Position numbers: made by a program | In this document: piece after piece, positions 1 to 3,000 of the stretch | Layout: each line of letters starts with the position of its first letter | Numbering within the stretch: position 1 is the stretch's first letter | IMG/VR virus record: IMGVR_UViG_2548876698_000001 | Coordinates: 1-6,824 of that record | Origin: a virus | Lineage: Duplodnaviria > Heunggongvirae > Uroviricota > Caudoviricetes | Direction: 5' to 3' (one strand) | DNA: 6,824 nt

Positions 1-3000
1 GGGTGGGCTAACGATATCCGCCTGATGCGTGAACGTGACGGACGTAACCACCGCGACATGTGCGTGCTGTTCCGCTGGGCATGCCAGGACAACTTCTGGT
101 CCGGTAACGTGCTAAGTCCGGCCAAACTCCGCGACAAGTGGACCCAGCTCGAAATCAACCGTAACAAGCAACAGGCTGGCGTGACAGCTGGAAAACCAAA
201 ACTCGACCTGACAAACACTGACTGGATTTACGGGGTGGATTTATGAAAAACATCGCCGCACAGATGGTTAACTTTGACCGTGAGCAGATGCGTCGGATCG
301 CCAACAACATGCCGGAACAGTACGACGAAAAGCCGCAGGTACAACAGGTAGCGCAGATCATCAACGGTGTGTTCAGCCAGTTACTGGCAACTTTCCCGGC
401 GAGTCTGGCTAACCGGGACCAGAACGAACTGAATGAAATCCGCCGCCAGTGGGTTCTGGCTTTCCGGGAAAACGGGATCACCTCGATGGAACAGGTTAAC
501 GCAGGAATGCGCGTAGCCCGTCGGCAGAATCGACCATTTCTTCCATCACCCGGGCAGTTTGTTGCATGGTGCCGGGAAGAAGCATCCGTTATCGCCGGAC
601 TGCCAAACGTCAGCGAGCTGGTTGATATGGTTTACGAGTATTGCCGGAAGCGTGGCCTGTATCCGGATGCAGAGTCTTATCCGTGGAAATCGAACGCGCA
701 TTACTGGTTGGTTACCAACCTGTACCAGAACATGCGGGCCAATGCGCTGACTGACGCGGAATTACGACGCAAGGCTGCCGATGAACTGACCTGTATGACA
801 GCGCGAATTAACCGTGGTGAGACGATACCTGAACCAGTAAAACAACTTCCTGTCATGGGCGGCAGACCTCTAAATCATGTTCAGGCGCTGGCGAAGATCG
901 CAGAAATTAAAGCTAAGTTCGGACTGAAAGGAGCAAGTGTATGACGGGCAAAGAGGCAATTATTCATTACCTGGGGACGCATAATAGCTTCTGTGCGCCG
1001 GACGTTGCCGCGCTAACAGGCGCAACAGTAACCAGCATAAATCAGGCCGCGGCTAAAATGGCACGGGCAGGTCTTCTGGTTATCGAAGGTAAGGTCTGGC
1101 GAACGGTGTATTACCGGTTTGCTACCAGGGAAGAACGGGAAGGAAAGGTGAGCACGAACCTGATTTTTAAGGAGTGTCGCCAGAGTGCAGCGATGAAACT
1201 GGTATTGGCGGTATATGGAGTTAAAAGATGACCATCTACATCACTGAGCTAATAACAGGCCTGCTGGTAATCGCAGGCCTTTTTATTTGGGGGAGAGGGA
1301 AATCATGAAAAAACTAACCTTTGAAATTCGATCTCCAGCACATCAGCAAAACGCTATTCACGCAGTACAGCAAATCCTTCCAGACCCGACCAAACCAATC
1401 GTAGTAACCATTCAGGAACGCAACCGCAGCTTAGACCAAAACAGGAAGCTATGGGCCTGCTTAGGTGACGTCTCTCGTCAGGTTGAATGGCATGGTCGCT
1501 GGCTGGATGCAGAAAGCTGGAAGTGCGTTTTTACAGCAGCATTAAAGCAGCAGGATGTTGTTCCTAACCTTGCCGGGAATGGCTTTGTGGTAATAGGCCA
1601 GTCAACCAGCAGGATGCGTATAGGCGAATTTGCGGAGCTATTAGAGCTTATACAGGCATTCGGTACAGAGCGTGGCGTTAAGTGGTCAGACGAAGCGAGA
1701 CTGGCTCTGGAGTGGAAAGCGAGATGGGGAGATCGGGCTGCATGACTATCAAATCAAATACGCCAGCACACGACAAGGACTGCTGGCAAACGCCGCTTTG
1801 GCTTTTTGATGCACTGGATATTGAGTTTGGATTCTGGCTGGATTCGGCAGCGAGCGACAAAAATGCTCTGTGTGCTCACTGGCTAACTGAGGCCGACGAC
1901 GCGCTCAATTCTGAGTGGGTAAGCCACGGTGCAATCTGGAATAACCCACCGTACAGCAATATCAGGCCGTGGGTGGAAAAAGCCGCTGAGCAGTGCATAC
2001 AACAGCGACAGACGGTAGTTATGCTTGTACCAGAGGATATGTCAGTCGGATGGTTCAGCAAGGCTCTGGAGAGTGTTGACGAAGTTCGTATTATCACTGA
2101 TGGACGGATTAATTTTATCGAACCATCGACAGGGCTGGAGAAGAAGGGAAACAGCAAAGGTTCCATGCTGCTGATTTGGCGACCGTTCATCAGTCCTCGA
2201 CGGATGTTTACTACCGTATCCAAAGCGGCATTGATGGCGATCGGGCAGGGCGTCAGGAGGGCAGCATGAGACGCAGCGACGAAGCATCACCGACATAATC
2301 TGCGAAAACTGCAAATACCTTCCAACGAAACGCTCCAGAAATAAACGCAAGCCAATCCCAAAAGAATCTGACGTAAAAACCTTCAACTACACGGCTCACC
2401 TGTGGGATATCCGGTGGCTAAGACATCGTGCGAGGAAAACAAGGTGATTGACGCGATGATTTATTCGGGGCTATATTCCTCACGCGCCAGCAAAATCTGG
2501 CGTCGGGATTAGCACCCCGGATATCGAAACGGTGCATAACCGCGCTGGCGGTTTTTTTATGCGCTAAGCACAGTCACATTCGCGATTTATGGCGGGCTGT
2601 GTGGGGGAGCCGAAAGGCTCGCCGGATGTTTCGACCGGTAGTGCTAACCCCGCACAGTTCGCCACCACGATGATTAGCACCTGACGGTGGCGAGGTAAAA
2701 ATAATCGAAACGCGAGGTCATTATGGCTGTTCAAATTTCTGTCGAAAACCTTTCCCCTGTTACCTATAACCAGATCCCCGTAATTACTACTGAACTGTTG
2801 GCTCACCTTTACGGAACAAAAATCAAAAACATTTCTGATAACTTTCTGAACAACACGACGCGATTCATGCCCGGAAAGCATTACTTTAAAATTGAAAAAA
2901 ACGAATTACGCGAGTTTAAGAACAGACCCGAAACAATCGGGTTAGTTGGTAAAAATGCCCGCTCCCTCATCCTCTGGACAGAACGCGGAGCAGCCCGTCA

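Follow-up and report, generated by a model that had tools for sequence, protein, structure and literature searches.

Positions 2448–2558 of the 6,824-nucleotide phage DNA analyzed here (the window) very likely comprise the promoter and the gene of an IsrK-family small RNA, which stands first in a switch of the P1 immI type that controls an antirepressor gene. The promoter–hairpin–terminator unit is the known prophage small RNA IsrK, already described, and the element adds no new kind of mechanism. The original prediction for this region holds for the small RNA unit and for the break in lambda homology. Creation of the unit at a recombination junction was not borne out, and a c4 RNA, target-mimic sites and the ant gene had been overlooked.

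IsrK-family small RNA

A covariance-model search, which had been proposed as a check on the region, gave a full-length match (model positions 1–77) to Rfam isrK, RF01394, at 2484–2558 with a score of 76.6 bits (threshold 50) and E = 1.3e-15. These limits coincide with those originally predicted for a ~75-nt promoter–hairpin–terminator small RNA unit, 2482–2558. The two hairpins and the terminator (2538–2558) that had been described are present. Hairpin 1 spans 2484–2503 and has the loop GCAAAAUC, hairpin 2 spans 2504–2519, and a linker leads to the intrinsic terminator, with its stem at 2538–2553 and a T-run to 2558, all on the plus strand. The two 5' hairpins and the Rho-independent terminator were recovered in the minimum-energy and centroid folds and by terminator calling. 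The 5' and 3' ends of IsrK in this phage and the efficiency of its terminator are predicted from homology.

The folding energy by itself is unremarkable (−27 kcal/mol, z = −1.63), with 12 of 200 shuffles folding as well. As this energy alone is not significant, the case for IsrK leans on homology and covariation; compensatory changes were observed in 5 of the 7 pairs of hairpin 1. The terminator was not called in the RNAalifold consensus of the module alignment because MAFFT mixed two terminator sequence types. Read in the alignment, both types are a GC hairpin followed by a T-run. A partner for the invariant hairpin-1 loop was sought by eye in c4, the c4 5' leader and the ant leader, and none was convincing. 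Pairing of this loop was dropped as a candidate, the single 5-nt match found in the window and in P1 being without covariation.

The promoter and the lambda junction

The isrK promoter occupies 2448–2477 on the plus strand, with a −35 element TTGACG (2448–2453), an 18-nt spacer and a −10 element TATATT (2472–2477). This is the sigma70-like combination of TTGAC and TATATT proposed originally, and at 10/12 it is the best such site in the window. The exact pattern TTGAC-N19-TATATT occurs once in the window against an expectation of 0.01. The Gifsy-1 transcription start, placed via the mutant numbering of PMC4825925 (first AUG of orf45 = A107), aligns to position 2484, the base of IsrK hairpin 1 and the predicted start in this phage.

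Upstream of the cassette, the last lambda-homologous gene is ninE (2266–2447, plus strand). Alignment to lambda, phi24B and VT2-Sakai showed a 1-nt deletion close to its 5' end, so that ninE is frameshifted in the window. Its stop codon TGA (2445–2447) is overlapped by GTG 2444–2446, which, as had been observed before, opens an M-I-D frame of 22 codons closing at TAG 2510–2512. The window matches lambda exactly through GGTGATTGAC, up to 2452, and is unrelated to it beyond. The homology returns exactly at the ninG ATG, 4197, in agreement with the divergence from ninF after codon 3 that had been reported. The likeness to lambda ninF consists of the position after ninE, the GTGA start/stop overlap and the first codons, GTG ATT GAC. 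Past codon 3 there is no similarity, and the six common bases are the module's own −35. NinF protein is not encoded, codons 1–3 of lambda ninF alone being common before the frame stops after 22 codons. Judged from the alignments, the apparent M-I-D of ninF is a 6-nt overlap (ATTGAC, 2447–2452) where the last of the ninE homology runs into the −35 of the module, because homologous modules elsewhere carry the same (A)TTGAC −35. The entire cassette, 2448–4196, sits in the ninF slot and was not generated by the junction.

The suggestion that a junction inside ninF brought the conserved TTGAC beside TATATT, thereby generating a promoter and a small transcript de novo, is highly improbable. Lambda identity does run through GTGATTGAC and then ends. 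Near-identity of PhiR12_3 to the window starts only at 2464, within the promoter spacer, so breakpoints do occur inside the isrK promoter. Nevertheless, (A)TTGAC at 16–18 nt from a TATATT or TATAGT −10 is kept in six homologous modules without ninE or ninF upstream (Gifsy-1, GER2, PhiR12_3, Stx2a_JNE122536, APSE-3 and P1). The module follows Q in Gifsy-1, follows toxin–antitoxin genes in PhiR12_3 and GER2, and lies in immI in P1, whose record annotates the promoter P1c4. The RNA itself is moreover a member of a curated Rfam family. There is equally little to expect of the 22-codon GTG frame (2444–2512, plus strand) as a real micro-protein. Its start still looks like that of lambda ninF, with GAGG ahead of it and the ninE stop overlapped as GTGA, and one phage record, that of phi24B, lists the frame as vb_24B_17. 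Past codon 3, however, the frame crosses the promoter and enters the structured IsrK RNA at its 5' side. In VT2-Sakai it has 26 codons and another C-terminal end (read from the alignment row), its GTG is missing from the modules aligned from other genomic contexts, and coupling to ninE translation is lost because ninE is frameshifted. The frame was judged non-coding and rejected as a gene for lack of conservation.

The c4-type RNA and the antirepressor gene

Downstream of isrK, the Rfam model C4 (RF01695) matched at 2585–2669 with 75.1 bits (threshold 45), identifying a c4-type antisense RNA. The c4-a1b1 model also matched (50.6 bits, threshold 46.7), and the isrK, C4 and c4-a1b1 matches are all on the plus strand in P1 order. 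The c4 fold has an energy of −49.1 kcal/mol (z = −5.95), with compensatory changes in 11 of 27 pairs. Its long stem is followed by ACCA, a context compatible with RNase P, and a candidate cut site corresponds by homology to the P1 c4 5' end. From homology to the P1 c4 ends, mature c4 is predicted at 2591–2666. Hartmann et al. are said to have found in 1995 that RNase P processes the c4 RNAs of P1 and P7; by analogy, c4 may be processed by RNase P in this phage too.

A blastn search with the window region did not reach Gifsy-1 or P1; these sequences were taken by accession and the modules located there with the Rfam models. In 8 of 8 comparison loci, including Gifsy-1, isrK is followed by C4 about 25 nt away, and in most of the eight the pair lies upstream of an annotated antirepressor, ORF6N or Bro-N type gene. 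In the window this position is taken by ant (2723–3400, plus strand), which encodes ORF6N and P22_AR_C domains (Pfam 2.7e-20 and 1.3e-23) and corresponds to Ant in the annotation of phi24B, where the locus is 98.9% identical. It has a Shine–Dalgarno sequence GAGG at 2714–2717 and starts 54 nt past the Rfam c4 match, with no conserved ORF between; ant is the gene that the IsrK/c4 switch would regulate. An intrinsic terminator follows at 3417–3438, and the last gene of the cassette is roi-like, with Rha and KilAC domains (3469–4197); both are on the plus strand. No single phage record matched the whole window. A 31-codon frame from AUG 2589 was considered as a gene and rejected, the frame not being conserved. 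A minus-strand frame of 105 codons (2564–2881) was noted as a possible gene.

The c4 RNA carries two seeds, b' GUUUCGA (2628–2634) in a hairpin loop and a' GUGCUAA (2641–2647). Complementary sites for both are found in IsrK and in the ant leader, again on the plus strand. In IsrK, a1 UUAGCAC (2509–2515) forms part of the loop of hairpin 2, and b1 UCGAAAC (2524–2530) lies between hairpin 2 and the terminator. In the ant leader, a2 UUAGCAC (2674–2680) lies 5 nt past the Rfam c4 match and b2 UCGAAAC (2705–2711) ends 2 nt before the Shine–Dalgarno sequence, in the positions of P1 a2 and b2. The b2 site is adjacent to the Shine–Dalgarno sequence with no overlap and is probably inside the ribosome footprint. 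The pairs a':a1, a':a2, b':b1 and b':b2 are all perfect over 7 nt.

In nine distinct modules, taken from unrelated phages that include P1 and Gifsy-1, the cognate seed matches are 4–9 nt long. These modules contain at least eight b-type and at least six a-type seed variants, with UUAGCAC/UCGAAAC in the window as against UUGGCGU/GAAACC in VT2-Sakai. Seeds and targets covary, and in each of four seed/target sets 0 of 20,000 permutations equaled the cognate sum. Exact seed matching was used here instead of whole-segment duplex energies, which place cognate and non-cognate pairs ~7–9 kcal/mol apart and are only moderately discriminating because stems common to all modules dominate. When the 257-nt read-through RNA is folded to minimum energy, its IsrK segment pairs with its c4 segment, resembling 'structure A' of PMC4825925.

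Proposed RNA switch

Transcription is expected to start at ~2484 from the sigma-70 promoter (−35 at 2448, −10 at 2472). Most transcripts would end at the terminator to give IsrK of ~75 nt, while read-through transcripts would include the c4-type RNA, from which RNase P would excise c4 at AU|GG (2590/2591), by analogy with P1. The single-stranded b' and a' seeds would then pair with a2 and b2, and c4 held beside the Shine–Dalgarno sequence would keep ant untranslated in the lysogen. With a1 and b1 as identical copies of the targets, IsrK could engage c4 by mimic pairing, both in cis, as part of the long transcript, and in trans, in its short form. Because its mimic sites pair with c4, an excess of IsrK would free the ant leader, and the Ant so made would help to inactivate the prophage repressor. 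In P1, repression of icd translation has a polar effect on ant; with no icd-like gene present, that mechanism cannot hold literally here.

This scheme builds on family membership, structures, seed complementarity with covariation and promoter conservation, as seen in the window and its homologs. Experiments in Gifsy-1 lead one to expect a discrete transcript, pairing of a1 with a' and IsrK-dependent activation of antirepressor translation, and those in phi24B a role of Ant in induction. In Gifsy-1 lysogens, IsrK is highly transcribed in every condition tested, and so is STnc1160, an RNA encoded downstream of it where the c4 match falls (PMC7067206). The Gifsy-1 compensatory mutants G28A/C162U and G31A/C159U (PMC4825925) map inside a1 and a' when their numbering is transferred to the alignment. 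In the P1 record, a1, b1, c4, a2 and b2 have the same layout, and a2/b2 are described as sites for repression of icd-ant translation. For this phage we infer blocking of the ribosome site by c4 and titration of c4 by IsrK. That c4 blocks ant translation and that the IsrK mimic sites titrate c4 is the most likely reading, and it agrees with the published Gifsy-1 genetics.

It is possible, although rather unlikely, that a1/b1 and the terminator form a leader or attenuator acting only within the nascent transcript, with the short RNA a by-product without a role in trans. Such a leader might control how much transcription reads through into c4 and ant, in the manner of P4 CI-seqA, or guide folding or processing of the c4 precursor. 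The analogy with P4 seqA/CI was raised by the Gifsy-1 authors (PMC4825925), and it fits that b1 lies just 7 nt upstream of the terminator stem and that an overlapping alternative hairpin was called at 2530–2547. P1 has the same leader, yet its record gives a1 and b1 merely as 'putative', and the isrK model scores 35.1 bits there, below threshold. Against this, plasmid-borne IsrK supplied in trans activated anrP translation 139-fold in Gifsy-1, point mutants being inactive (PMC4825925), and IsrK is listed in Rfam as binding Hfq. The explanation preferred by the Gifsy-1 authors is translation of orf45 coupled to anrP, not a processed trans-acting c4 (PMC4825925). Taken literally for the window, it would have IsrK open the ribosome site of a small ORF at AUG 2589 whose translation is coupled to ant, and we consider this less likely still. 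In Gifsy-1, activation fell when the orf45 start codons were mutated or a stop was inserted (PMC4825925), and AUG 2589 is invariant in 9 of 9 aligned modules. The frame that follows, however, has 31 codons here and ~8 to 45 in seven other modules, and in Stx2a_JNE122536 it runs without a stop inside the aligned stretch. In the window it ends at 2682–2684, 38 nt upstream of the ant ATG, and the AUG itself belongs to the c4 stem, with the predicted RNase P site falling inside it.

Some observations count against the proposed c4/IsrK switch. They are the orf45–anrP explanation itself, the result that constitutive STnc1160 together with IsrK made the IsrK-mediated growth arrest stronger, not weaker (PMC4825925), and the fact that b2 stops 2 nt short of the Shine–Dalgarno sequence, together with the lack of icd, the 'putative' status of a1 and b1 in the P1 record and the unremarkable folding energy of IsrK.

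Distribution and significance

Roughly one in three complete E. coli genomes carries the module, with up to seven copies in a genome. Among the E. coli genome matches listed, none has a RefSeq annotation of the element. In one phage record, that of phi24B, a portion of the element is entered as a 'hypothetical protein', which recognition of the IsrK element corrects. The module in the window also links the literature on Salmonella IsrK with that on P1 c4.

In phi24B, deletion of ant reduced pR' activity after induction to ~27–56% of wild type (PMC3064807). Since Ant helps to relieve repression at Stx-phage induction, the RNA switch ahead of ant could plausibly modulate the induction of Shiga-toxin phages. 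Antisense control of ant is not described in the Stx-phage and EHEC small-RNA papers covered here. More speculatively, the seed pairs might work as RNA 'immunity types', as in P1/P7 heteroimmunity, so that IsrK and c4 RNAs of co-resident prophages cross-titrate or cross-repress one another's antirepressors. We regard this as rather unlikely; it is conceivable because the module is widespread in E. coli, at up to seven copies per genome. If true, seed immunity types would couple or insulate Shiga-toxin phage induction at the RNA level.

Comparison with known systems

IsrK of Gifsy-1 (RF01394; Hershko-Shalev et al. 2016, PMC4825925) shares the sigma-70 promoter, two 5' hairpins, linker and intrinsic terminator. 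About 25 nt further on it is likewise followed by a c4-like RNA (STnc1160/'orf45') and then by an antirepressor gene of the ORF6N type. Compensatory mutations in Gifsy-1 verified the helix that corresponds to the a1:a' pairing proposed for the window. The two differ in slot, which lies between ninE and ninG in the window and downstream of Q in Gifsy-1, and in seeds, UUAGCAC/UCGAAAC compared with UUGGCGU/UCACCG. The terminator sequences are also unlike, and the small ORF has 31 codons in the window as against 45, without abutting ant. An Rfam search of the window gave no isrJ match after ant, another difference from Gifsy-1.

The immI region of P1 and P7 (promoter P1c4/P51b, a1, b1, c4, a2, b2, icd, ant1/2) has the same order and spacing of elements. 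Its c4 falls in the same Rfam model and has a tRNA-acceptor-like stem with CCA-type bases after it; the promoter has a −35 of ATTGAC and a TATAGT-like −10, and the output is an antirepressor gene. In contrast to P1/P7, the window lacks icd, and ant comes directly after the leader; neither a C1 operator nor a second promoter of the immI type was identified in the window. The terminator of the P1 leader is weak, that leader scores below the isrK threshold, and the antirepressor proteins belong to different families.

The immunity system of P4 (CI RNA, seqA, seqC) similarly places a processed small RNA between upstream and downstream copies of its own target, and CI was named a structural analog of IsrK by the Gifsy-1 authors (PMC4825925). 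By the description given there, the sequences not being compared here, CI brings about premature transcription termination of replication genes, whereas the switch proposed for the window would control translation of an antirepressor.

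The isrK–c4 module in the nin region

The genes of the window, in order P (243-944), ren, ninB, a Dam-type methyltransferase gene, ninE (2266-2447), two of antirepressor type (2723-3400 and 3469-4197), ninG, ninH and Q, make up the nin region of a lambdoid prophage that resembles Stx phages. An Rfam scan of the window gave three matches over curated thresholds at one locus, all on the + strand: isrK (2484-2558; 76.6 bits, threshold 50), c4-a1b1 (2471-2523; 50.6 bits, threshold 46.7) and C4 antisense RNA (2585-2669; 75.1 bits, threshold 45). The isrK/c4 unit is placed between ninE and the first antirepressor-type gene, ant, which follows c4 and encodes an antirepressor with ORF6N and P22_AR_C domains. 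The small RNA in the original prediction, 2482-2558, nearly coincides with the isrK match, and its two hairpins (2484-2503 and 2504-2519) and terminator (stem 2538-2553, T-run to 2558) are present.

The alignment to lambda is identical through GGTGATTGAC, with no similarity beyond, in agreement with the predicted divergence. Homology returns exactly at the ninG ATG (4197); a 1.75-kb cassette therefore fills the ninF slot. As described, GTG 2444-2446 overlaps the ninE stop TGA (2445-2447) and starts a frame of 22 codons that runs to TAG 2510-2512. This frame is a "hypothetical protein" in the phi24B annotation; in VT2-Sakai both its length and its C-terminus differ, and the other contexts lack it. 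The sigma-70-like promoter was also recovered: TTGACG (2448), 18 nt and TATATT (ending 2477) form the best such site in the window, the exact pattern being expected 0.01 times per window.

Nevertheless, the proposal that the ninF junction created this promoter is contradicted, as the same promoter occurs in modules without ninE or ninF upstream. An (A)TTGAC -35 element lies 16-18 nt from TATATT or TATAGT in Gifsy-1, GER2, PhiR12_3, Stx2a_JNE122536, APSE-3 and P1; the P1 copy is annotated as promoter P1c4 (previously P51b). ATTGAC (2447-2452) lies where homology to lambda ends and homology to the other modules begins, and is part of both, so that the apparent ninF codons 2-3 are a 6-nt overlap, which is either a microhomology junction or a coincidence.

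Several neighboring features were noted. ninE carries a 1-base deletion near 2274 (window 2266-2300) relative to phi24B, VT2-Sakai, Stx2a 981509 and lambda (GAGACG-CAGCG in the window, GAG[A/G]CGACAGCG in the others), and therefore the frame from ATG 2266 ends at TAA 2296-2298. For E. coli 2013C-4830 (99.9% identical), RefSeq has a shortened NinE equivalent to about 2286-2447. Opposite c4 and the 5' part of ant, the minus strand carries an ORF of 105 codons (2564-2881), which is probably spurious. The four annotated relatives inspected (VT2-Sakai, phi24B and two E. coli genomes) show no gene on that strand at the matching place. A strong terminator (3417-3438) follows ant where Gifsy-1 carries the sRNA gene isrJ; isrJ itself had no match anywhere in the window, and an RNA derived from the 3' end is possible at this terminator. 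Downstream of Q, a strong STnc100 Rfam match (5901-6101; 148 bits, threshold 47) ends at an intrinsic terminator (6068-6091). By its position we take it that this may be a short PR'-to-tR' late-promoter transcript, like lambda 6S RNA or StxS. The same terminator, strong and on the + strand, faces a second strong one on the - strand (6130-6109), which suggests that convergent transcription units meet at 6068-6130.

Structure and seed–target complementarity

The c4 fold is far better than shuffled controls (z = -5.95), with compensatory changes in 11 of 27 pairs and ACCA after the stem. IsrK alone did not fold far better than shuffled controls (z = -1.63); five of the seven pairs in its hairpin 1 show compensatory changes. 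The loop of hairpin 1 (2490-2497), GCAAAAUC, is almost invariant across modules while these stem pairs covary, the exceptions being P1 (GCAAAUUC), PhiR12_3 (GCAAAACC) and the diverged Stx2a_JNE122536. A conserved complement to this loop was seen neither in c4 nor in the ant leader.

Seeds and sites are named as in the P1 record. Both c4 seeds are single-stranded: b' (GUUUCGA, 2628-2634) lies in a hairpin loop, and a' is GUGCUAA (2641-2647). Each has two perfect 7-nt complements. Within IsrK these are a1 (UUAGCAC, 2509-2515, in the loop of hairpin 2) for a' and b1 (UCGAAAC, 2524-2530) for b'. The corresponding sites in the ant leader are a2 (2674-2680) and b2 (2705-2711), the latter 2 nt upstream of the ant Shine-Dalgarno sequence GAGG (2714-2717; ATG 2723). 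Although the seeds vary between phages, each has kept its match to the targets of the same module: among nine distinct modules, P1 included, the cognate matches measure 4-9 nt, and for none of the four seed/target sets did any of 20,000 permutations attain the cognate sum. When the 257-nt read-through RNA is folded at minimum energy, its IsrK segment pairs with its c4 segment.

Distribution of the module

All eight comparison loci, which come from diverse phages, contain isrK followed by C4 about 25 nt away, in most cases preceding a gene annotated as antirepressor or ORF6N/Bro-N type. The pair has the same ninE context in VT2-Sakai, follows toxin–antitoxin genes in PhiR12_3 and GER2 and lies beside a tail-fibre gene in phiV10. 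It is also carried by Stx2a_JNE122536, Yersinia phage vB_YpM_41, Hamiltonella phage APSE-3 and Salmonella Gifsy-1; the two RNAs are already annotated in the APSE-3 record, and in Gifsy-1 IsrK was characterised experimentally. Other Rfam matches were seen near the GER2 module (sRNA-Xcc1, L006 3224-3307, 75.7 bits) and the vB_YpM_41 module (ryfA, L008 1164-1462, 134.6 bits).

A blastn search placed the module in 1,759 of the 5,426 complete E. coli genomes; a single genome holds as many as seven copies, and 49 places lie on plasmids. Among the E. coli matches listed, none has an RNA annotation of the module in RefSeq, and some divergent copies overlap genes annotated "ash family protein".

Proposed mechanism and alternatives

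In this phage the promoter would fire in the lysogen, with most transcripts terminating to give IsrK and read-through yielding a c4 precursor. RNase P probably cuts the precursor at AU|GG (2590/2591), as judged from homology to the ends of mature P1 c4. Pairing of c4 with a2 and b2 would hinder ribosome binding at ant; IsrK, bearing the same two target sites, would compete for c4, and the IsrK:c4 ratio would decide Ant synthesis.

Work on homologues bears on these steps. In Gifsy-1, the first AUG of orf45, the small ORF downstream of IsrK, is numbered A107 (PMC4825925), which aligns the Gifsy-1 transcription start to window 2484. The compensatory mutant pairs G28A/C162U and G31A/C159U (PMC4825925) map inside a1 and a', and the a1:a' helix proposed for this phage is therefore experimentally verified in a homologue. 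Antirepressor translation rose 139-fold with IsrK supplied in trans (PMC4825925). STnc1160, a stable processed RNA downstream of IsrK that depends on the isrK promoter (PMC4825925), occupies the position of the c4 match, and both RNAs are highly transcribed in Gifsy-1 lysogens under all conditions tested (PMC7067206). In phi24B (locus 98.9% identical to the window), deletion of ant left late-promoter activity after induction at about 27-56% of wild type (PMC3064807).

The Gifsy-1 authors proposed instead that translation of the small ORF is coupled to that of the antirepressor gene (PMC4825925). This ORF is not conserved. Counted from the conserved AUG, its length is 31 codons in the window and ranges from about 8 to 45 in seven further modules, and the aligned part of Stx2a_JNE122536 contains no stop for it. 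In the window it ends 38 nt upstream of the ant ATG. Coupling is therefore unlikely here. A serious alternative, or additional function, is that the leader acts purely in cis, by attenuation or by controlling termination in the manner of P4.

Relation to known systems

The isrK–c4 element is already known, with curated Rfam families and a dissected Salmonella homologue; the two RNAs are annotated together in at least one phage record. The Stx-phage copy appears uncharacterised in the papers searched; the phi24B ant study (PMC3064807) does not mention antisense control of ant. This is a gap in application rather than a new kind of system. The read-through fold with IsrK paired to c4 is similar to "structure A", the inactive form described for Gifsy-1 (PMC4825925). 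The layout of the module is the same as that of P1 immI, with its annotated a1, b1, c4, a2 and b2 sites, and the P1 version of the c4 system is textbook material.
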